Shown piece after piece: positions 1 to 56,444 of a DNA stretch of 64,000 nt; the stretch's first letter is position 1; every line of letters begins with the position of its first letter. The notes beneath the pieces were generated by a model. The model saw nothing but the letters and a program-made list of their open reading frames with translations, had not been told where the DNA came from and searched no databases. Made by a program: the position numbers and the translations under genes. Source of the stretch: an uncultured Acidimicrobiales bacterium (GTDB lineage Bacteria; Actinomycetota; Acidimicrobiia; Acidimicrobiales; UBA10347); contig CALKPY010000005.1 in assembly GCA_937991435.1 (NCBI GenBank), positions 45,854 to 109,853 of the forward strand. The letters run 5' to 3'.

Positions 1-135
1 CGTTGCCGGGTCGTCGACTATCTCGGCTGAGGCTTCGAGCGTCGCCGGATGAGCCTGCAACGAAGTATCCCAGAACGTGCCGTCGAGGTCGGTGACGACA
101 AGAGTCTTTGTGTTACGAGTCTTTGTGTTGCTCAT
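1..135 (-). CDS. HAD-superfamily hydrolase, N-terminal fragment (runs off the window)
   Basis: Minus-strand ATG at 135..133. It translates MSNTKTRNTKTLVVTDLDGTFWDTSLQAHPATLE, which contains HAD motif I (DxDGT). The start overlaps the stop of the upstream gene as ATGA (132-135). Confidence 0.5.
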   Translation of the reverse strand, partial: MSNTKTRNTKTLVVTDLDGTFWDTSLQAHPATLEASAEIVDDPAT

Positions 136-992
136 CGACGCAACGATGCTTGCATCGTGCGCAGTTGCCGAAACGCGCCGCCTAGGCGCATCTCCACGGC
201 ATCGAGATCAGACGCGTTCGACGCCCTCAAAACCGTTGACTTGAGTTCGGCAGCCGTCTTGTCGAGTGACACCCATTGATCTGCAATTGCGGGCTGCGCC
301 AGTGCCGCTCCGCGAGACTCTGCAAGTTGCTCTGCGAGCTGGTTTGCCCAGCTGCTCAGATCAACCTGTCGTTGACTTTGATCGCTCTCTTTTCGGATCC
401 GGCGGGAGCGTGCCGCGCGGAACCGCAACGCTTGCACCAGCACGAAGAGCAACGACAACGCAAGAAGGCCTGCGGCGATCCACACCCACCACGAACTCGT
501 TGGCGGGTCGATGCCCTCTTCATCAACAACGGCGAGGAACGCGTCGACGGAATCGCCGATATTTTCCTCGGCTTGCGCGCGCGTGAGCGCACGTTCGAGC
601 TGCGAAACCGCGATATCTGCGCTAGCGACTTCAAATGAGGCGCCGTTGGCCTGATACGAGAGCGCAGTGCCCCCGAATCGGTCGACAAGAGCAGCTGCAC
701 TGACCGGAGCAACATCAGCGTCGACCACAGCGACACGCAACGTGGTGCCGATGCTGCGCGCCCGGGCATCTGCCTGAGCAAGCTGACCGATATCCAGTTC
801 TTCGGTGCCCGTCACCGAAAGGTCGCCGACTGACGCACCCGATGCAAAAGCTTCGACCATCGCTGACGGAAGCGACGCGTCGGTTCGGCTGCACGACGCA
901 AACAAAAGGGCCGCGACTGCGATTACGACCAACGATCTGCACCTTGGGTGCCCGGCAACGGAATCAACGCGACCCAGTCGCTCGACTGTCAT
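132..992 (-). CDS. hypothetical lipoprotein/membrane protein
   Basis: 286-aa ORF with a lipobox-like LLFASC near the N-terminus and one internal TM (WWVWIAAGLLALSLLFVLV). ATGA overlaps on both sides (989-992 and 132-135). No family recognised. Confidence 0.55.
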   Translation of the reverse strand: MTVERLGRVDSVAGHPRCRSLVVIAVAALLFASCSRTDASLPSAMVEAFASGASVGDLSVTGTEELDIGQLAQADARARSIGTTLRVAVVDADVAPVSAAALVDRFGGTALSYQANGASFEVASADIAVSQLERALTRAQAEENIGDSVDAFLAVVDEEGIDPPTSSWWVWIAAGLLALSLLFVLVQALRFRAARSRRIRKESDQSQRQVDLSSWANQLAEQLAESRGAALAQPAIADQWVSLDKTAAELKSTVLRASNASDLDAVEMRLGGAFRQLRTMQASLRR

Positions 993-1390
993 GCTCGTCC
1001 CAAAATGCGAGTGACGACGATCTCGATCGTGCGTCGATCAGCCCCACGATCCTTTGGGGGCCGGTACCGGTCGGCGTAGCGACGTTCGGCGTCGGCATTA
1101 GTGGCGGCATCGGCGGTCACGGTCGCGGTGCCATGAAGCGTCATCCATCGACCACCATCGACTTGACACACCGCCGCCTCGAGACCTACGTCTTGTTGCT
1201 GCTCGATCAAGCGCACTTTGCGCGCTGTCGCGAAGGTGATAATGCGCGCACACATCGTCTCTTCGTCGTACGTGAAGCCGACGGGTGTCACGTGCAGACC
1301 GCTCGGCGCGGCCAACGAAAGTGTTGCGAGATGCCTCTCGCTCAAAAACGTGAGCATTTCCTCGGTCAGATGCGCCGGTTCAACAGCCAT
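989..1390 (-). CDS. pyridoxamine 5'-phosphate oxidase (PPOX-class) family flavoprotein, possibly F420-dependent
   Basis: 133 aa. N-terminus LTEEMLTFLSERHLATLSLAAPSGLHVTPVGFTYD is typical of the small split-barrel PPOX/F420 family. Size fits. Confidence 0.7.
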   Translation of the reverse strand: MAVEPAHLTEEMLTFLSERHLATLSLAAPSGLHVTPVGFTYDEETMCARIITFATARKVRLIEQQQDVGLEAAVCQVDGGRWMTLHGTATVTADAATNADAERRYADRYRPPKDRGADRRTIEIVVTRILGRA

Positions 1391-1434
1391 GATGCGAGGC
1401 TAGTTGGCCGTTCGCGAGGTAGGTTGGGTAGGTC

Positions 1435-1860
1435 ATGCCGATCTTCACGCGAACCGTTGAGTACGGAACCCCATTCCGCAAGAATGAGGTTGTCAGAGCC
1501 ACCTGCGACCTTCCCGGAGTCCCTGCGGGCACAACCGGCAAGATCAAACTCGCCAACGGGTTCGAATGGCACCGCTACTGGGTGTTTTTCGACAACGGCA
1601 TCGACGTAGGACAGCTCGACGAACGAGAACTCGTGCGCCCTGAACACTGGGGCCAATGGCACGAGCAACAAGCCGAAGAAGCCGCCGCAGCCGAGCGGCT
1701 CGCGGCATCCGCCGCCAGCTCAGCCGATGACGCGGGTGGCGATCGAGCGGCTGCTGGCGATGCTGACCCCGACGACCCACTCGCACGGCTGCGGGCCATG
1801 GTCCCCGCTCATCTGCTCGAGAAGTCCAAGGCTGCACGCGAACGCCTTACGGGCGCCTGA
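1435..1860 (+). CDS. hypothetical protein
   Basis: 141-aa ORF in a gap between confident genes. Ala/Asp-rich linker. No recognised domain. Confidence 0.45.
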   Translation: MPIFTRTVEYGTPFRKNEVVRATCDLPGVPAGTTGKIKLANGFEWHRYWVFFDNGIDVGQLDERELVRPEHWGQWHEQQAEEAAAAERLAASAASSADDAGGDRAAAGDADPDDPLARLRAMVPAHLLEKSKAARERLTGA

Positions 1861-2473: not shown

Positions 2474-3889
2474 ATGACCGTCTCAGCGGATTACTCCGAC
2501 GGGCCCAGCCCCCATATTCGTCGGCTGATGCACGCCAGCCCGATGCTGGCCGACCTCGCCCGCGCCGATGTGCTTCTCTTGCGACCAGTCGACGACTCTG
2601 ATTTCGAAGTGCTCCATCATGTTCGCCCCATAAACGCGCGAACCGTGTATCCGATTGACCAGGCGGGCGTTCGAATGCCTCGCGCCGACCGACCGTTGGC
2701 GGCCAAAGCGCTCGAGACTGGCGAAATCTTCGATGGCGGTGTGTATCTGCGCCATCGCGATCGCTGGATTCGGACCCTGGTTGGTCCGGTGACCCATGAA
2801 GGACGCGTTGTCGCTGTCCTCGCTCGCGAGTTCTATCCGGCCGTCGAGTTCATGCCTGGCGACCTTGAACTCGTGTGCTTTTCGACGTATCGACGGCTTG
2901 CGTCAATGATCGCCAGCGGCTCGTATCCGTTCGGCGTTGAGACGCGGGTGCACGATCATCCGCCGCGGGTCGGCGATGGGGTCATGATTTTCGACCGAGC
3001 GGGCCGCTTGCACTACGCATCTCCCAACGCGCTTTCGGTGCTGCGTCAGGTTGGTGTTTCCGGGGCGAACATCGGCCAGCGTTTCGGCGACTTGGGTATC
3101 GACGCACCCGGCATAAGCCAGGCCTATGCCAACCGACTTGCGTACACCGACGAGATCGAGCTCGGCCAAGCAGTCCTCAGCACCTACTGCGTGCCATTGC
3201 TCACCCGCGAGGTCGTGACGGGAGCTCTCGTGCTCGTGCGCAACATCACCGAGCTTCGCCAACGCGATCGGTTGTTGATGACCAAAGACGCGACCATCGC
3301 CGAGATCCACCACCGGGTGAAGAACAGTCTTCAGACCGTTTCATCACTGTTGCAGTTGCAAAGTCGACGTCTCGAGTCGGTCGACGCCCGCGATGCGCTC
3401 GCTGAGGCGGCACGGCGAATCCGTTCGGTGAGCGTGGTGCACGAGTTACTTTCGCATCGCACTGACGACGAGATGCGCTTTGATGAGATACTGGCAACGC
3501 TGGCAGACATGACGGGCACGTCGCTCATGAACCCATCGCGGCCCGTGGCGATCCACGTCGACGCTGACCCGATTGTGTTGTCCAATGCCGTTACGACGCC
3601 CCTGGCGTTGGTTGTAAGCGAGCTTTTGCAAAACGCACTGCAACACGCTCACGCATCACGGATCGACGTTCGCCTGCGAGCCGACAACGACGGAATACAT
3701 CTTGCTGTCGTTGACGATGGCGTGGGATTTGAGTCGCAAGCTGCGGACGAATCGGGCAGCGGGCTCGGGCTCACAATCGCTCGCACACTCGTCGAAGGAG
3801 ACCTCTACGGAAGCATCTCGTTCTCGTCACCCGGACCGGGCGCGGTAATTGAGGTAGATGTTCCACGAGTCAACCCCTCGCCGTGTTGA
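2474..3889 (+). CDS. pdtaS: cytoplasmic GAF/PAS sensor histidine kinase, HisKA_2 type (PdtaS-like)
   Basis: 471 aa with no TM. H-box EIHHRVKNSLQTVSSLLQLQSRR (HisKA_2/HWE type). ATPase G-boxes DDGVGF and GSGLGL. N-terminal about 270 aa have GAF/PAS-like architecture, as in actinobacterial PdtaS. Confidence 0.65.
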   Translation: MTVSADYSDGPSPHIRRLMHASPMLADLARADVLLLRPVDDSDFEVLHHVRPINARTVYPIDQAGVRMPRADRPLAAKALETGEIFDGGVYLRHRDRWIRTLVGPVTHEGRVVAVLAREFYPAVEFMPGDLELVCFSTYRRLASMIASGSYPFGVETRVHDHPPRVGDGVMIFDRAGRLHYASPNALSVLRQVGVSGANIGQRFGDLGIDAPGISQAYANRLAYTDEIELGQAVLSTYCVPLLTREVVTGALVLVRNITELRQRDRLLMTKDATIAEIHHRVKNSLQTVSSLLQLQSRRLESVDARDALAEAARRIRSVSVVHELLSHRTDDEMRFDEILATLADMTGTSLMNPSRPVAIHVDADPIVLSNAVTTPLALVVSELLQNALQHAHASRIDVRLRADNDGIHLAVVDDGVGFESQAADESGSGLGLTIARTLVEGDLYGSISFSSPGPGAVIEVDVPRVNPSPC

Positions 3890-49288: not shown

Positions 49289-51442
49289 TCAGACCGGACG
49301 GAACTCAATTCGCCGGTTCAGTGCTTTGTTGGCGTCAGTGTCGTTTGGAGCGACAGGATTTGCCTCACCAAAGCCAACTGCGGTCAAGCTTTCGGCTGGG
49401 ATTCCTTGCTCGATCAAATAGGTCCTCACCGCGTCGGCGCGGTCTTGGCTCAAGGTTCGATTCAAGTCGTCAGACCCGTCGCTGTCGGTGTGCCCACCAA
49501 TCTCGATGTTTGTTGGCGTGGCAATAAGGAACTCGACAACCCGGTCTAGTTCGGCCTTGCCTTCAGCGGTAATATCGCTGCTGCCAAGCGCGAACGTGAT
49601 TGGGTTCAGGCTGAGAGCCTCGCCGATCTCTTCGGGCGGAGCAGGAATCGTCGACGGCGGGAACATCAGTCCATTGATGACGTGAAGCACACCATTGCGA
49701 CCGGCAATGTCAGGCAGCACTACGGTCACAAGATCATTGAGCTTGACTGATCCACCGTCTACTGAGACATTGATCAGTTCGTTCTGAAGCGTCGTCAGGG
49801 TTGTGAGCGAAGCCACATCGGCGCCGCTTAGTTCGCCGTTGACGATGTGGTACTGCAGAAGTTGTTGAAGGATTTCTCGGTTTCCTTCGAGTTGGCCCTG
49901 AGCTGCTGCGATGGCTTCATTGGTCGGAGCAAACACGGTGAATGGCCCGTTGCCGTCGAGAGCATCGCTGAGTCCTGCTTCGTCTAGCAGTGCGCGCATC
50001 GTAGAGAGCTCTGGCTGAGCAGCAATGATGTCGTTGATCGAATAGCCCTCGGGTTCAACCGTGACGACCTGAATGTTGTTCTGCGCACTCGTCATGCCCT
50101 GTACCGCGCGGGCGGCGGTGTCAACAAGTGCGTTGGTGCGATCATCGGGCACCGTGCCGGTCAGAATCGCGACCGTACCGACGACTTCGCCCTTGACTCC
50201 TGGGTAGGGAGCAAGAGCAGCGTTTAGAGCACCCTGGCGTTGGATGAGCGCAGGATCTGGTGTCGGCTCAGCCTGTTCGGCTGTTTCAGTCGACGTGGTG
50301 GTGTCTTCTTCGGTGTCGGCAGCGTCGTCTCCGCACTGGCTCATGAAGTAGAGAAGCAGGAGCACTGCCAGAATTGCCCCGAGGAGCCACCAAAGCCAAC
50401 CCATAGCGGACATAGACCGACCCTTGTCAAAGTCGATGTCGCCGTCAATTGGAGTTTCTTCGACATGCACCGCAGAGGTCTCAGCGACCGCTTCGGTCGC
50501 GGTATAGGCGGGCTCGCCTGGCACTGTCACACTTGCGGCCTCGTCGATACCGCCATACGCGTCGAAGTCAGCAGACGTGCCGACCTTTGGCAGGTCTTCG
50601 GCGATCACGATGTCATCTGCTGCAACGTCACGAGAGGCAACGTCGCCTGCCACAACATCGCCAACCACAACGTCGCTAGCCCGGGTGGCATCAACGTCGA
50701 CGCTGACGTCGGTTACATCGGGCGCACCATCGAGAGAGTCCGGAAATACGCCAGCGACCACCGTTCCGGCACCGACCACGCCGGCACCAGCGGCAAGTGC
50801 GCCGGCTCCGATGCCATTGGCGTCATCAATTTCGACATCGAGGTCGAGCCCATCGTCGAGGCCGACATCGGTATCGAGATTGCCGCCGACACGGGCGACT
50901 GCGTCAACGTCAGAACCATCAGCATCGATGCCAGGGCTGACGAGCTCCACGACCCGTCCGAATCCCTTGCCTTGAAGATCTTCTACCGCAGACCCGAGAT
51001 ATCGGCGCAATCCGGTTGCATCGCGGCTCGCTCCGTTCGCGAGCGTGCCGGTGGCAAGAGGCGCCAACACGGACATGACCTGCGCAAGCATGCGGGTGCT
51101 GAGACCCGAGGCTCCGCTCAGCGCACTAAGCGCGGGCTCTCCACGATCACCAAACGCGACGTCGAGCAATGCCGCTCCGCGCGACGGATCGCCTGCGCTG
51201 AGATAGGCGGCTACATCGTCGGGAACCTGAGCACCCGGCTCATCGAGCATCGCTGCAAGGTTCTGGGCACCCCCTGGCTCGAGCGACTTGTCTCGGAGTC
51301 CGGCGATGAGCGCCGGAAGCCCGATTTCCATCGCCCTTCGCGTCTGGGTGCGGTCTGTGCCGAGTGCATGAGCGAGATCATCGGGCGCTGATCCGCGCAA
51401 CATGTCAGCAATCGTTTCAAACATCGAGGCCACGGGCGACAA
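49289..51442 (-). CDS. multidomain envelope protein: DUF937-like N-terminus, acidic low-complexity region, TM, BON, FAS1 (fasciclin), OmpA C-terminal peptidoglycan-binding domain
   Basis: FAS1: FTVFAPTNEAI and NGVLHVINGLMFPP. OmpA_C: IGGHTDSDGSDDLNRTLSQDRADAVRTYL...NRRIEF. TM MGWLWWLLGAILAVLLLLYF. BON-like GTVAILTGTVPDD. Confidence 0.8.
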   Translation of the reverse strand: MSPVASMFETIADMLRGSAPDDLAHALGTDRTQTRRAMEIGLPALIAGLRDKSLEPGGAQNLAAMLDEPGAQVPDDVAAYLSAGDPSRGAALLDVAFGDRGEPALSALSGASGLSTRMLAQVMSVLAPLATGTLANGASRDATGLRRYLGSAVEDLQGKGFGRVVELVSPGIDADGSDVDAVARVGGNLDTDVGLDDGLDLDVEIDDANGIGAGALAAGAGVVGAGTVVAGVFPDSLDGAPDVTDVSVDVDATRASDVVVGDVVAGDVASRDVAADDIVIAEDLPKVGTSADFDAYGGIDEAASVTVPGEPAYTATEAVAETSAVHVEETPIDGDIDFDKGRSMSAMGWLWWLLGAILAVLLLLYFMSQCGDDAADTEEDTTTSTETAEQAEPTPDPALIQRQGALNAALAPYPGVKGEVVGTVAILTGTVPDDRTNALVDTAARAVQGMTSAQNNIQVVTVEPEGYSINDIIAAQPELSTMRALLDEAGLSDALDGNGPFTVFAPTNEAIAAAQGQLEGNREILQQLLQYHIVNGELSGADVASLTTLTTLQNELINVSVDGGSVKLNDLVTVVLPDIAGRNGVLHVINGLMFPPSTIPAPPEEIGEALSLNPITFALGSSDITAEGKAELDRVVEFLIATPTNIEIGGHTDSDGSDDLNRTLSQDRADAVRTYLIEQGIPAESLTAVGFGEANPVAPNDTDANKALNRRIEFRPV

Positions 51443-51551
51443 TGTTAGGGCCTTCCGGGCTCAACTCGGGTTCAAGGGGTTGAATTCGACTGTCAAGCGA
51501 GTCATTACTGTACCCATCCGGTGGTGATCGCTCCATCTAGGATCAGAGCCA

Positions 51552-52031
51552 ATGAGCTACGTCTCGAGCGAAAAAGTCAACGTGGGTGAGCAAGCCCCGC
51601 CCTTCACCCTTCACCAAGTGGGCGGTGAGCCGATGTCGTTGAGTGACCTCCAGGGCACTCCGGCCGTGTTGGTATTTCTGCGGGGTTTCTTTTGACCAAA
51701 CTGCCGCCGGCACCTCTCGCAGTTGCGAGACGAATACGACCAAATCGAAGCGACAGGAGCCTCACTCGTGGTGATTGCGCCCGGCAGCGCAGACAAGGCC
51801 GATGAATACATCGCCCGATCGGGCACGTTCCCTTTCGCGGTTCTCAGCGATCAGGATCACACCGTTTTCGACGCGTATGACGTCGGCAAAAAGCTGATGT
51901 CGCTCGGTCAACGGCCTGCGATGTTCGTGCTGGACCCCAATGGCATCGTCACCTACAACCAGGTGGGTACGCAGCAAACTGATCTGCCCACGGTTGAAGA
52001 GATCGTACGCGAGGTCATGGCCCAGCAATGA
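51552..52031 (+). CDS. peroxiredoxin-like (AhpC/TSA, PRX_like2) protein with in-frame TGA at the active-site Cys position; candidate selenoprotein (alternatively a pseudogene)
   Basis: ATG 51552, then 47 sense codons (…GEQAPPFTL…LSDLQGTPAVLVFLRGFF), then TGA 51693-51695, then the same frame continues PNCRRHLSQLRDEY…LVVIAPG…FPFAVLSDQD…RPAMFVLDPNG to the stop at 52031. U-P-N-C replaces the usual C-P-x-C. Confidence 0.6.
51693..51695 (+). other. in-frame UGA, candidate selenocysteine codon
   Basis: 51693 minus 51552 is 141, which is 47 codons, so the TGA is in frame with ATG 51552. The track ORF at 51723 is in the same frame. Confidence 0.55.
51715..51730 (+). promoter_or_regulatory. candidate bacterial SECIS hairpin (tctcgc-AGTT-gcgaga)
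   Basis: Perfect 6-bp stem with a 4-nt loop containing GU. The stem starts 19 nt after the UGA. Spacing is compatible with bSECIS models, but the stem is short and I could not extend it convincingly. Confidence 0.4.
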
Positions 52032-52080
52032 CCATCGTGGGTAGAGCTAGCGCACGAACCCGAACCTTGGGCTACCCCCG

Positions 52081-52929
52081 ATGACCGAGGTCCGTTGGCG
52101 TTCGCGATCAACGAATGATTCGCCAATTGTCGTAATGGCTCTCGAAGGGCTGTTCGATATTGCCAACGCGGCGACCGACGCAGTCGACCACCTTTGCGGC
52201 CTCGCTACGTCCCAAACGCTCCTGGCGTCGATCGACCCAGAAACGTTTTTCGACTTTACGCAAGAACGCCCAAGGGTGAGTCTCGGCCCTGACGGAGCTC
52301 GCACACTCGACTGGCCCCAAAATGACGCCGTGGAGCTGCGCCTCGACGGACCGGTTCCCGAAATTATTGCCATCTCGGGCATCGAGCCCCATCTGCGTTG
52401 GCGCACGTTTTCTGAATCAATTGGCGAAATTGCGCAGCAATCCGGTGCTCGGTTAGTGGTGACGCTTGGGGCCATGGCAGGCCTCGCACCGCACACGCGT
52501 CCACTCGGTGTTGTGGGGTCCGCAAGCGACACCGCACTTGCTGCAAAGCTCGGCCTCAGCAAACCGAGTTATCAAGGCCCGACCGGGCTCGCTGGCGCGC
52601 TGCATGTGCATCTGCACGAGGCAGGGCTCGCTGTGATCTCAATGCGCGTTTCGGTTCCGCACTATGTAACCCAATCGCCAAACCCCGAAGCCACACGATC
52701 ACTGCTTGCCCGGCTCGAGCTCGTGACCGGCATCGAGACACGACACCGAGAACTCGATGCCGACGCTCTGGCGTGGCGACGTCGGGTTGACGAAGCTGTT
52801 GCAAGCGACCCTGACATGCAACGTTACGTGGGCCAACTCGAAGATCAGATCGATGCGACCGACGACCTTCTTCCATCGGGCGACGCGATCGCCGCAGAGC
52901 TGCAGGCGTGGCTCCGGGACCGGAGCTGA
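52081..52929 (+). CDS. PAC2 (proteasome assembly chaperone 2-like) family protein
   Basis: 282 aa. N-terminal PIVVMALEGLFDIANAATDAV, ISGIEP and HYV motifs resemble actinobacterial PAC2 family proteins. Confidence 0.7.
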   Translation: MTEVRWRSRSTNDSPIVVMALEGLFDIANAATDAVDHLCGLATSQTLLASIDPETFFDFTQERPRVSLGPDGARTLDWPQNDAVELRLDGPVPEIIAISGIEPHLRWRTFSESIGEIAQQSGARLVVTLGAMAGLAPHTRPLGVVGSASDTALAAKLGLSKPSYQGPTGLAGALHVHLHEAGLAVISMRVSVPHYVTQSPNPEATRSLLARLELVTGIETRHRELDADALAWRRRVDEAVASDPDMQRYVGQLEDQIDATDDLLPSGDAIAAELQAWLRDRS

Positions 52930-53465: not shown

Positions 53466-54974
53466 TTAGTGCCTGAAGTGGCGACGCCCCGTGAAGACCA
53501 TTGCCAATCCCTGCTCGTTCGCGGCAGTGATCACCTCGTCGTCTCGAATCGACCCGCCGGGTTGAACCACGACAGTCGCACCAGCTTCGGCCGCAGCGTC
53601 TAACCCATCACGAAACGGGAAGAACGCATCGCTGGCACAGGCCCCACCTACAGCGCGCCCGTCTGCCTTTTCGGCAGCGATCCGGGCGGCATCGCGCCGG
53701 TTCTGCTGGCCTGCGCCTATTCCGACGGCTGCGCCGTCTTTGGCGAGCACAATGCAATTACTCGAAACACCAGCAGCGAGCTTCCATGCGAATGTCAGGT
53801 CGATCCACTCGTCGGCGGTCGGTTGACGCTCGGTCGCGACCTGCCACGTGTCGAAGCCGACCTGCAGACGGTCGCTGTCTTGGACCAAAAGACCACCGCT
53901 GACAGTGCGAAACGTCAGCGGCTCGGCAGCAAAGGGAGCATCGCCGACCGCCACGACCCGCAGGTTAGGTTTCGAGGCGAGAACCTCAAGTGCCGATGGT
54001 TCAAATGACGGGGCGACGACAACTTCAGTGAAGACACCGGTGACACGAGCGGCCAGCTCGGCAGTCGCTTCACGGTTAAGAGCCACGACGCCACCAAACG
54101 CTGAGACCGGGTCGCCCTCGTGCGCCCGCTCGTATGCCGATTCGATCGTTTGGCCAAGCGCTGCGCCACAGGGGTTCGCGTGTTTCACCACGACAGCAGC
54201 CGGACCGTCTGCTTGCAGGTTGTTGACGAGAGCCCATGCGGCCTCGGTGTCGTACACGTTGAGGTACGACATCTCTTTGCCCTGGTGGATCACTGCCGAG
54301 TCCCACCACCCTTCGCCGTGCGTATGGCGGTACCGGGCGCCGATCTGATGCGGGTTCTCGCCGTAGCGAAGGTCGTGGACCCGATCGAGGCTGAGGTGGA
54401 TCGAGTCGGGCAGCCCACCGCCGGCATCAGCTGCAGCGTCAAACCACGTCGTAATCGCGGCGTCATAGGCGGCTGTGTGGGCAAATGCTTTGCGGGCAAG
54501 CGCACGCCGCATCTCGGCATCTGGGCCGCCGGACCTCAAAGCCGAGAGCGCCGATTCATAGTCATCTGGCGACGTAACGATCGTGACATGGGCATGGTTC
54601 TTCGCCGCCGCCCGCACCATGGTCGGGCCGCCGATATCGATATTCTCAATATCTGGTGCCGCCACAAAGGGGTAGAGATTCGACACCACAAGGTCGATTG
54701 GGACTATTCCTCGGTCACTGAGTTGTGTTACGTGAGCGGAATTGCTGCGATCCGCCAAGATTGCACCGTGGATCGCCGGATGAAGGGTCTTGACCCGCCC
54801 ATCGAGCATTTCATCGGCGCCGGTGACCTCGGCCACGGTGAGCGCGGCGATCCCAGCGTCGGCCAAAGCCCGGTGTGTTCCGCCACTACTGATGAGCTCA
54901 AACCCGAGCGAAACCAATCCCTCGGCGAACGGGATCAGACCGGCCTTGTCACTAACGGACAGCAATGCTCGCAA
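53466..54974 (-). CDS. purH: bifunctional AICAR transformylase / IMP cyclohydrolase
   Basis: RALLSVSDKAGL, KTLHPAIHGGIL-like, VVVKHANPCG and the C-terminal FTGRRHFRH. TTG start with GGAGG 8 nt upstream. Confidence 0.95.
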   Translation of the reverse strand: MRALLSVSDKAGLIPFAEGLVSLGFELISSGGTHRALADAGIAALTVAEVTGADEMLDGRVKTLHPAIHGAILADRSNSAHVTQLSDRGIVPIDLVVSNLYPFVAAPDIENIDIGGPTMVRAAAKNHAHVTIVTSPDDYESALSALRSGGPDAEMRRALARKAFAHTAAYDAAITTWFDAAADAGGGLPDSIHLSLDRVHDLRYGENPHQIGARYRHTHGEGWWDSAVIHQGKEMSYLNVYDTEAAWALVNNLQADGPAAVVVKHANPCGAALGQTIESAYERAHEGDPVSAFGGVVALNREATAELAARVTGVFTEVVVAPSFEPSALEVLASKPNLRVVAVGDAPFAAEPLTFRTVSGGLLVQDSDRLQVGFDTWQVATERQPTADEWIDLTFAWKLAAGVSSNCIVLAKDGAAVGIGAGQQNRRDAARIAAEKADGRAVGGACASDAFFPFRDGLDAAAEAGATVVVQPGGSIRDDEVITAANEQGLAMVFTGRRHFRH

Positions 54975-55053
54975 CGGGTGCCTCCAGCGAAGTGTGCAGC
55001 AGAAGCCGACGTTAGCCGCGCATCGACTGTGCGGGCGCTACGGTTTCGCAACG

Positions 55054-55482
55054 ATGAACAACGACACTTCACAGAAACGGTTCGAGCTTCGCGAAGCACT
55101 CCTCGTGATCGGAGGCGTTGCAATGATCGTTGCATCGTTCTTGCCGTGGCGACCGAATCCTGAGTTCATTGTCGATGGCGCCGAACGAGTCGAGCTCAGT
55201 CGCAACGGCTGGGAACTTGGCATGCTCGGGCTGTGGCAGACAATTATTGGCGGTCTGATCACGCTGGTTGGTCTCATCGGCATGCTTGGCAAAGCCAAGG
55301 TGCTTCCCCGCTCGATCGTCGGGTTTGCGACCTGGCAGCTCGTCGTTCTGTTCGCGACCCCACCGTTGTTGTGGAACTTTGGGCTGCAGTTCGATCAGAT
55401 CTTCGGTGGTGTCGGCCTGTTCATCGGTTGGATCGGTGCCGCCACCGCCATCGTGAGCGCAGCAATGAACCAGGTCGATTGA
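55054..55482 (+). CDS. hypothetical small membrane protein (4 TM)
   Basis: 142 aa from ATG 55054. Four hydrophobic segments. The longer track ORF overlaps purH on the opposite strand. Confidence 0.5.
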   Translation: MNNDTSQKRFELREALLVIGGVAMIVASFLPWRPNPEFIVDGAERVELSRNGWELGMLGLWQTIIGGLITLVGLIGMLGKAKVLPRSIVGFATWQLVVLFATPPLLWNFGLQFDQIFGGVGLFIGWIGAATAIVSAAMNQVD

Positions 55483-55559
55483 CGACCAACCGGTTCCGAC
55501 GATGCCGACAAGCGCCAGCTCTACGCGAAGACGTAAAGCTGACGCCTATTCGATGAAAA

Positions 55560-56444
55560 TTACAGCTTGGCGACGATTTCGGCCATGAGTTCGCCGGCCT
55601 CTGTAGGGTTCTGCCCCACCAACACGCCAGCGTCTCGAAGCGCTTCCATCTTCGCGTCGGCTGTTCCCTTGCCACCGGAGACGATGGCTCCTGCGTGGCC
55701 CATTTTCTTGCCCGGAGGGGCGGTTACGCCTGCCACGTAGCTCGACACCGGCTTGGTCACATTGTTCTTGATGAACTCGGCAGCCTCTTCTTCGGCCGAG
55801 CCGCCGATTTCACCGATCATCATGATCGCTTTGGTCTCAGGGTCAGCTTCGAATGCAGCCAAGCAATCGATGAAGCTCGTGCCCGGAACCGGATCGCCAC
55901 CAATACCTACGCAGGTGGTCACACCGATGTCTTTTTGCTTGAGTTCGTAGAGCGCCTGGTAGGTCAACGTGCCAGACCGGCTCACGATGCCGACGGGACC
56001 GCCTGCCTTAGCGATGTGGCCAGCGGTGATGCCGATATTGCACTTGCCCGGGCTGATAATGCCTGGGCAGTTCGGGCCCAAAAGTTGCACGTCTGGATGG
56101 TCGCGTTGCAGCTTGTTGAAGAACCAGGCCTCGTCATGAGCAGGCACGCCTTCGGTGATAGCGACGATGAACTTGATACCGCCTTCGGCTGCCTCGATCA
56201 CCGCGTCTTTCACGCCTGGTGCGGGAATGAAGATACAGCTCGCGGTAGCTCCGGTGGCTGCGACTGCTTCGGCAACCGATGCATAGATCGGCACGCCATC
56301 GACGTCGGTGCCCGCCTTTTTGGGGTGAGTGCCGGCGACAACCTGCGTGCCGTACTCCTTATTTAGGCCCCCGTAGTAGCTGCCTTGGCGGCCGGTCAGG
56401 CCCTGGTAAATGACCTTGGTGGTCTCGTCAACGAAAATTGCCAT
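55560..56444 (-). CDS. sucD: succinate--CoA ligase [ADP-forming] subunit alpha
   Basis: 294 aa. Motifs GLTGRQGSYY, NCPGIISPG, SRSGTLTYQ and GHAGAIVSGG (phosphohistidine loop). Confidence 0.95.
   Translation of the reverse strand: MAIFVDETTKVIYQGLTGRQGSYYGGLNKEYGTQVVAGTHPKKAGTDVDGVPIYASVAEAVAATGATASCIFIPAPGVKDAVIEAAEGGIKFIVAITEGVPAHDEAWFFNKLQRDHPDVQLLGPNCPGIISPGKCNIGITAGHIAKAGGPVGIVSRSGTLTYQALYELKQKDIGVTTCVGIGGDPVPGTSFIDCLAAFEADPETKAIMMIGEIGGSAEEEAAEFIKNNVTKPVSSYVAGVTAPPGKKMGHAGAIVSGGKGTADAKMEALRDAGVLVGQNPTEAGELMAEIVAKL

Follow-up and report, generated by a model that had tools for sequence, protein, structure and literature searches.

A 64,000-nt stretch of DNA from an uncultured Acidimicrobiales bacterium (contig CALKPY010000005.1, positions 45,854 to 109,853), referred to below as the window, contains on its forward strand a gene at 51552..52031 whose reading frame is interrupted by a single TGA at 51693-51695. 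We interpret it as a complete selenoprotein gene of 159 codons plus stop, encoding a peroxiredoxin-like (Prx-like, AhpC/TSA-fold) thiol:disulfide oxidoreductase with a U-P-N-C motif. The TGA is almost certainly, judging from the comparison of related sequences, the codon for selenocysteine (Sec) at residue 48 of a 159-residue protein. The interpretation as a whole, namely a single Prx-like UxxC selenoprotein gene in which a selenocysteine insertion sequence (SECIS) would drive recoding of the UGA and in which Sec48 and Cys51 would form a redox pair, was assigned a probability of about 0.9. It is preferred because a single protein domain extends across the UGA, relatives keep this codon without exception, Cys occupies its position in distant homologues, a downstream hairpin covaries, and UGA otherwise acts as a stop codon in this DNA.

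The gene is read in a single frame from ATG 51552 to the true stop codon TGA at 52029..52031, and the TGA at 51693..51695 is its sole interruption. A putative Shine-Dalgarno sequence, AGGA (51539..51542), lies 9 nt 5′ of the ATG. The first 47 codons (51552..51692) are open and encode MSYVSSEKVNVGEQAPPFTL...VLVFLRGFF, comprising the beta strands that lead up to the motif; after the TGA the frame resumes with PNCRRHLSQLRDEY..., so that the local context of the recoded codon is VLVFLRGFF-[TGA]-PNCRRHLSQLRD. The second residue of the putative redox pair, Cys51, is encoded by TGC at 51702..51704, is Cys in all 96 unique sequences compared and would be the resolving Cys. A mechanical list of open reading frames (ORFs) splits the gene into 51552..51695 (47 aa) and 51723..52031 (102 aa, TTG start). 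The coordinates that the initial annotation gave for the ATG, the 47 codons, the TGA, the 102-aa ORF and the hairpin were each correct on re-reading of the sequence.

When Cys was substituted at the TGA, the 159-aa product matched Pfam AhpC-TSA along its full length (E 1.4e-28, 123/124 profile positions, residues 11-135), with a score of 99.8 bits against a cut-off of 26; Pfam Redoxin also matched (E 2.5e-20). The AhpC-TSA match runs across the TGA, which makes each ORF one half of a single thioredoxin-fold domain, as expected from the earlier proposal of an intact AhpC/TSA-type gene. TGA is also the commonest ordinary stop in the window, where it ends 31 of 50 long ORFs, so the genetic code has not been reassigned. 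The N-terminus of the protein, MSYVSSEKVNVGEQ, has no hydrophobic segment, and on that account the protein is probably cytoplasmic.

Fourteen relatives came from a word-indexed search of 5.8 billion proteins, and their contigs were fetched; further loci were collected from GTDB species-representative genomes (20) and JGI metagenomes (80); 104 loci remained after removal of duplicates. Every one of the 14 database relatives was a C-terminal fragment of 87-106 aa, covering 53-63% of the query. Each fetched contig carried a 46-47-codon ORF with a weak AhpC-TSA match, then the TGA, then the remainder in the same frame. All public gene calls examined thus split the gene into 47-aa and 87-106-aa ORFs, which bears out the prediction that standard annotation would miss it, and joining the parts restores the redox centre.

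TGA was found at the Sec column in 104/104 non-redundant loci, and TGC/TGT, TAA or TAG in none. It had been proposed that orthologues would hold Cys or TGA in this column, and that additional frame disruptions would point to pseudogenes; no such disruption was found in any of the 104 loci. The family members are 45-76% identical and come from Acidimicrobiia metagenome-assembled genomes (MAGs) and from soil or freshwater metagenomes. They share the motif FLRGFx-U-P-[FHNY]-C, and orthologues have in common an N-terminus of the form M-x-[YF]-[VI]-x-S-S and the overall architecture. The TGA arrangement holds in the syntenic relatives (65-71% identity) and equally in relatives at 46-52% identity with other gene neighbourhoods. 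Where the window and its orthologues differ in nucleotide sequence, the differences cluster at third codon positions, both before and after the TGA; over the N-terminal 47 codons the comparison with locus L001 gave 19/13/36 differences, third positions being favoured.

The Acidimicrobiaceae MAG CAYSAC01 has two paralogous Sec-containing copies on separate contigs (L025 and L028), both with the TGA and the hairpin. In Logan sample ERR9287622, the gene product of locus L006 is identical to that of the window, and locus L002 carries a gene of the type found in MAG CALDYC01 (proteins about 66% identical). Both loci are from one sequencing run, so the sample contains two Sec-using Acidimicrobiales side by side.

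HMMER was run exhaustively on 1.84 billion cluster representatives, with the part of the protein after the TGA as query. The eight best matches (E up to 4e-13, 39-54% identity) were all truncated forms of at most 107 aa. The first full-length homologue, P0023 (36% identity), reads FLRGFGCPFCCRHL in this region; its motif is FLRGFGCPFC, with Cys at the Sec column. Cys occupies the same column in other distant homologues, in the motifs ACPYC (P0026), WCPSC (P0041), WCPYC and ACPFC. These Cys homologues are about 36% identical to the window protein or less, and the codon is TGT in the three for which loci were compared (L113-L115). In these alignments the wider family has Cys at this position, and every member of the closer clade has TGA. 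The Sec/Cys pair that the initial annotation recognised in the interrupted frame is thus borne out, with CPxC in distant homologues and TGA in the closer clade.

Two of the homologues have unusual structures. P0026 (L114 501-1430, GCA_014896485.1) is a 309-aa fusion of an N-terminal Prx-like domain with A-C-P-Y-C and a C-terminal BCP-type peroxiredoxin (FYPKDMTPGCT), which hints at a functional link between Prx-like and BCP-type activities. P0034 (175 aa) has the active-site region FLRGPFWRRHL, from which the UxxC/CxxC motif has seemingly been deleted; this seems to reflect decay, or else an assembly or frame error.

The hairpin UCUCGC-AGUU-GCGAGA (51715..51730) consists of a 6-bp stem and the tetraloop AGUU (51721-51724). 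It begins 19 nt after the UGA and its loop begins 25 nt after, with G-U at loop positions 2-3. The spacing accepted in bSECISearch-type models is about 16-37 nt, with which a loop start at 25 nt is compatible. As a chance background, each strand of the window has 22 perfect hairpins with a 6-bp stem and a 4-nt loop, and 0.7% of all TGA trinucleotides in the window have one starting 8-30 nt downstream. The hairpin alone is therefore weak evidence, and it becomes convincing only through comparison with relatives.

In that comparison 95 distinct sequences aligned without gaps over a segment that starts one codon before the UGA and extends 57 nt beyond it, and the distance between UGA and hairpin is therefore fixed. 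The Leu codon at +10 was TTG, and the Gln codon at +9 was CAG, in 96/96 unique sequences. Other Leu codons varied in the same 96 sequences: CTC 44, CTG 34 and TTG 7 at -8, and CTG 62 and CTC 19 at -5. Third-base entropy was 0.00 at codons +8 to +10, whereas the codons on either side gave 1.2-1.8 bits. All 94 of 94 unique sequences had the loop AGUU, which supplies the conserved GU in the apical loop of a nearby downstream stem-loop that is typical of bacterial selenoprotein genes.

The stem also covaries. The pair 51717-51728 (alignment columns 24-35) joins the first base of a Ser/Ala/Thr codon to the synonymous third base of an Arg codon, and occurs as U-A (35), U-G (36), G-C (10), A-U (7) and G-U (6), with 1 mismatch. 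In a set of 94 unique sequences it was paired in 93, compared with 62% expected from independent columns. At the adjoining pair (columns 23-36) locus L112 has a swap from C-G to G-C. In all, 98.9% of helix cells were paired, and the covariation score of 0.208 was reached by 0/500 shuffles (0.071 in shuffles); when the helix register was slid by 1-3 columns the score was at most 0.092. RNAalifold predicted the same helix without prior structure. As a control, the three Cys homologues with TGT (L113-L115, n = 3) have no helix in register and use CTG or other codons there. The hairpin was first called SECIS-like from its place 19 nt after the UGA and the GU in its loop; among relatives it proved to be conserved, covarying and fixed in spacing.

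Only one family member has a disturbed hairpin. In L077 (1633-1695) the sequence is CTG TCG CAG TTG CGC GCA, with three mismatches in register. A shorter stem containing a bulged U can nevertheless form, and the copy may be degenerate or may represent a variant SECIS.

The active site was compared with solved structures by sequence alignment to the PDB, and the protein was scored against NCBIfam models with their curated cut-offs. The best structural match was Aeropyrum pernix BCP (4.1e-16), followed by Bacillus subtilis ResA (2.6e-13; PDB 1st9, 3c71). In the ResA alignment W-C-P-H-C lay on F-U-P-N-C column for column, placing U48 at the N-terminal nucleophilic Cys of CxxC. In the BCP alignment C51 matched the peroxidatic Cys, and U48 matched the Ser at -3 from that Cys. 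The peroxiredoxin signature PxxxTxxC is absent from V-F-L-R-G-F-F-U-P-N-C, where the residues at -7 and -3 relative to U48 are V41 and G45 and not Pro and Thr. U48 falls on the first Cys of ResA and C51 on the peroxidatic Cys of BCP, and the protein is therefore of the UxxC oxidoreductase type and not a TxxU peroxidase. By these alignments Sec48 opens a CxxC-type motif and does not occupy the peroxidatic position of true peroxiredoxins. The initial annotation had placed the UGA at the catalytic Cys of U-P-N-C, in the column of the first Cys of CPxC; this holds, with the refinement that the peroxidatic Cys of true peroxiredoxins aligns with C51.

Assignment to three related named families was considered and rejected. 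Membership in the SelL-related redox proteins (NCBIfam NF040769) was not accepted: this was the best match (81.2 bits, E 6.7e-23, residues 14-113), but the alignment is partial and the cut-off is 120. The ResA model (NF002854) scored 61 against a cut-off of 170, and the window protein has no signal or anchor, so ResA/TlpA membership was rejected. Identity as a canonical peroxiredoxin or PrxU was rejected from the missing PxxxTxxC/U motif and from a PrxU (NF040737) score of 38.5 against 270. A BCP/thiol peroxidase model also matched, more weakly than the SelL-related one.

The following mechanism is proposed. On translation, UGA 51693 would be bypassed as a stop, and the hairpin 19 nt downstream would act as a bacterial SECIS, its AGUU loop exposing G-U. 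The hairpin would recruit SelB·GTP·Sec-tRNA(Sec) to the ribosome paused at the UGA, and selenocysteine would be inserted. In the finished protein Sec48, at the solvent-exposed N-terminal position of the motif, would attack an oxidised substrate (a disulfide, a sulfenate or similar), and Cys51 would resolve the intermediate to form an intramolecular selenenylsulfide. This would presumably be reduced by a cellular reductant.

The genomic setting agrees with a Sec-using lineage. The closest related genome fetched was the uncultured Acidimicrobiales MAG CALDYC01, in which the Prx-like protein is 66% identical to that of the window; PurH on the same contig (70,448 nt) is 74% identical to the window PurH, for which the nearest PurH found was 76% identical. 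Nearly all other genomic matches were to MAGs of Acidimicrobiia, Acidimicrobiales, Ilumatobacteraceae, Iamiaceae or Acidimicrobiaceae. The window is 60% G+C and encodes PAC2 (proteasome assembly chaperone 2 family), which we take to be in keeping with Actinomycetota, and one related contig carries a gene for F420H2-dependent quinone reductase. Two family members, L014 (CAVTWS010000024.1, 0.51 Mb) and L015 (CAVTAI010000017.1, 1.46 Mb), are labelled 'uncultured Acidobacteriota'. They are 52-54% identical and of the U-P-H-C subtype, and could represent a taxonomic mislabel or horizontal transfer. The remaining genomic matches are labelled Actinomycetota or a subgroup of it, except L023 ('uncultured bacterium').

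Genomes of this group are known to contain SelD, SelA and SelB: Ilumatobacter coccineus with 15 known selenoproteins, Ilumatobacter nonamiensis with 10 and Ca. Microthrix parvicella with 7 (Peng et al. 2016, PMC5029168, Tables S1-S2). In addition, selA/B/C/D were reported in all 84 complete Actinomarina genomes (bioRxiv 10.64898/2026.04.03.716425). Sec machinery in the Acidimicrobiales lineage, which the initial annotation offered as an implication of the gene, is thus already known from the literature and is not news.

Several observations weigh against the selenoprotein interpretation. A 71-nt segment with the hairpin, folded as a single sequence, was no better than its shuffles (z = -0.33). 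The stem is short (6 bp) and is without the bulged U and lower stem of Escherichia coli fdhF, and the conserved peptide L-S-Q-L-R could explain part of the nucleotide conservation. No Rfam family matched at gathering thresholds, and a permissive search of 51500-52100 gave only chance-level matches and no SECIS family; this null result carries no information, since Rfam covers bacterial SECIS elements poorly (bioRxiv 10.64898/2026.04.03.716425). The related sequences are, moreover, not phylogenetically independent. As for the machinery, ARAGORN detected no tRNA gene in the 64-kb window and no tRNA-Sec in 27 related loci, Pfam detected no SelA, SelB or SelD among about 43 window ORFs, and tblastn with E. 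coli SelA, SelB and SelD gave no matches in the window and related loci (453 kb). A protein-database search with E. coli SelA returned, among the matches listed (120), only Enterobacteriaceae, and so carries no information on the contigs of this family.

Some of these points would be expected if the hairpin were not a SECIS, its conservation being due to the peptide L-[SAT]-Q-L-R-[DE] and codon bias and the decoding element lying elsewhere: the stem lies wholly inside conserved codons, is short, has no Rfam model and is not significant in single-sequence energy. However, synonymous sites are frozen only within helix and loop (TTG at +10, mixed Leu codons elsewhere), the free third base of the Arg codon tracks an opposite base that changes the amino acid with pairing almost always kept, and Cys homologues with a similar peptide (HLRQL) use CTG and have no helix. 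We consider this explanation very unlikely. Slightly lower still is the probability that the hairpin stimulates insertion of a residue other than Sec, either Cys through a selC*-type tRNA-Cys(UCA) and a SelB-like factor or another residue through some other read-through. The inserted residue is indistinguishable from sequence, no Sec machinery was seen in the window or 453 kb of related loci, and SelC* tRNA-Cys(UCA) systems able to read UGA as Cys do exist (PMC5389517). Their genes, however, were reported from anaerobic Firmicutes, Thermodesulfobacteria, Nitrospirae and Deltaproteobacteria, always beside a full Sec apparatus, and not from Actinobacteria (PMC5389517). Acidimicrobiales relatives, on the other hand, are documented Sec users (PMC5029168), and selection gives no reason why upwards of 100 lineages should keep a UGA with its hairpin to encode Cys if TGC would suffice.

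True termination at the UGA would give a 47-aa peptide and an internally initiated protein of about 87-102 aa (from TTG 51723 or a later GTG/ATG), which might re-associate into a split thioredoxin fold. All public annotations match this model, but neither of the redox residues, nor the first beta-alpha unit, would be present in the C-terminal fragment, and the predicted internal starts differ among orthologues (LRD..., MRD..., MLAIAP..., MVIAP...). The P-x-C-R-R-H-L codons between the UGA and these starts, which would be untranslated, are also among the most conserved, and we regard the model as highly improbable. The lowest probability, close to none, was given to a pseudogene or a sequencing or assembly error, in which TGC or TGT would have changed to TGA in the Cys-type Prx-like gene of one genome. 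A single in-frame stop does resemble a fresh nonsense mutation, and gene callers treat it so. Against this, the same TGA occurs in all 104 homologues, from independent assemblies and habitats and at 45-76% identity, with no other disruption, and the substitution pattern is of the coding type on both sides of it.

In syntenic relatives the gene is preceded by a DUF937/Fasciclin/OmpA gene and followed by PAC2 and a phosphoribosyltransferase gene, with purH and sucDC also downstream in L001 and L003-L005. The relatives at 46-52% identity adjoin genes for an MFS transporter, a nitroreductase, an acetyltransferase and the F420H2-dependent quinone reductase. The order Prx-like, PAC2, phosphoribosyltransferase is confined to the closest clade; distant members lack the PAC2 context, which therefore says little about function. 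In L003 (10309-10312) and L001 (2516-2519) the stop of the Prx-like gene and the start of PAC2 share 4 nt, an overlap suggestive of an operon in these closest relatives. In the window (52031-52135) the two genes are 49-103 nt apart.

Other features of the window and related loci were also recorded. Between purH (53466-54974, minus strand) and sucD (55560-56444, minus strand) lies a 585-nt gap (54975-55559) with a candidate gene at about 55054-55482 on the plus strand. It is the tail of the plus-strand ORF 54790..55482 (from MNNDTSQKRF..., about 142 aa), and reads like a small multi-pass membrane protein. This candidate gave no tblastn match to the 243-aa gene that L003 has in this position, and the two are unrelated; in L001 the gap is only about 60 nt. 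In L021 and L024 (Actinomycetota/Acidimicrobiia MAGs) a transfer-messenger RNA gene with the tag ANDNLALAA (2570-2924, minus strand) occupies the position immediately upstream of the family member, whose start is near 3001. At 132-992 (minus strand) and 842-1609 (plus strand) of the window, long ORFs without a Pfam match overlap on opposite strands. A scan of 51350-52200 for promoters and terminators detected no promoter-like site and one terminator-like site at chance level. Three further TGA-interrupted frames in the window were considered as candidates for a second selenoprotein and rejected, their translations having a non-coding look. A scan of all loci for a TGA with an NGUN-loop hairpin returned only the Prx-like family plus spurious or ordinary stop sites.

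A further proposal is that the family is a distinct, Acidimicrobiia-centred clade that uses Sec exclusively and has a minimal and rigid SECIS. We put this forward tentatively, with the odds somewhat against it. The clade carries the signature FLRGFx-U-P-x-C-R-R-H-L...SLGQRPA and includes no Cys form, the nearest Cys homologue being about 36% identical. Each NCBIfam model with a match to the window protein gave it a score under the curated cut-off. The SECIS of the clade is 16 nt long, with a C-N-C-G-C / G-C-G-N-G stem, the invariant AGUU and a fixed 19-nt spacing. If the clade is indeed distinct, it would deserve a family model of its own, and a covariance model started from the hairpin could be used to find other actinobacterial selenoproteins, missed by Rfam and by present tools.

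The known picture is unchanged: UxxC Prx-like selenoproteins have been on record since the 2000s, and the Acidimicrobiales are already known to be rich in selenoproteins. If the Sec interpretation is true, the organism that carries the gene uses Sec. Of the by-products, the most useful is the actinobacterial SECIS itself, which is compact and very small, covaries clearly at one stem pair and is usable for a search model.

Compared with the E. coli fdhF SECIS, the window hairpin likewise lies within the coding sequence just 3′ of the UGA and has an N-G-U-N tetraloop (AGUU, and GGUC in fdhF). It differs from that of UGA(140) of fdhF in that the distance from the UGA to its loop is 7 nt greater (G at +29 compared with +22, the U of UGA being 0), and in that its stem is a perfect 6-bp helix with no bulged U and no lower helix leading back to the UGA.

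Among selenoprotein families the closest is that of the Prx-like thiol:disulfide oxidoreductases (pfam00578, UxxC/UxxU), which is listed in selenoproteome reviews with WP_010940744.1 as reference protein (PMC9312934, PMC13188914). The reviews separate it from Peroxiredoxin (PF00578, TxxU), and its subfamilies are defined by domain plus motif (PMC13188914; PMC9312934). The Global Ocean Sampling survey counted 225 'Prx-like 1' sequences (pfam00578, UxxC) (PMC2398784). The window protein belongs to this catalogued kind, corresponding in both domain and motif, with AhpC-TSA (PF00578), Sec first in UxxC and U-P-[FHNY]-C across its clade. As in that family, the selenoprotein is a computational prediction, Cys homologues are abundant and annotation mis-calls truncated ORFs. 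The difference is that the window clade is centred on Acidimicrobiia, has FLRGFx-U-P-[FHNY]-C-R-R-H-L and apparently uses only Sec.

SelL (NF040769; eukaryotic selenoprotein L, Prx-like2, cd02970) is likewise similar, being the best NCBIfam match with a Prx-like2-type fold and the motif at the start of helix 1. However, the redox motif of SelL is UxxU and that of the window protein UxxC, and the window protein scored below the cut-off with only about 100/173 profile positions aligned. PrxU (NF040737) of the Eubacterium acidaminophilum type (PxxxTxxU) is also a PF00578 selenoprotein with a bacterial SECIS within the coding sequence, but its Sec is at the peroxidatic Cys position (TxxU), where the window protein has Cys51, the predicted Sec of the latter being at the Thr/Ser position. 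With ResA/TlpA the window protein shares the alignment of W-C-P-H-C with F-U-P-N-C and the second-best structural match. ResA, in contrast, is membrane-anchored and extracytoplasmic and uses Cys, whereas the window protein has no hydrophobic N-terminus and would use Sec.

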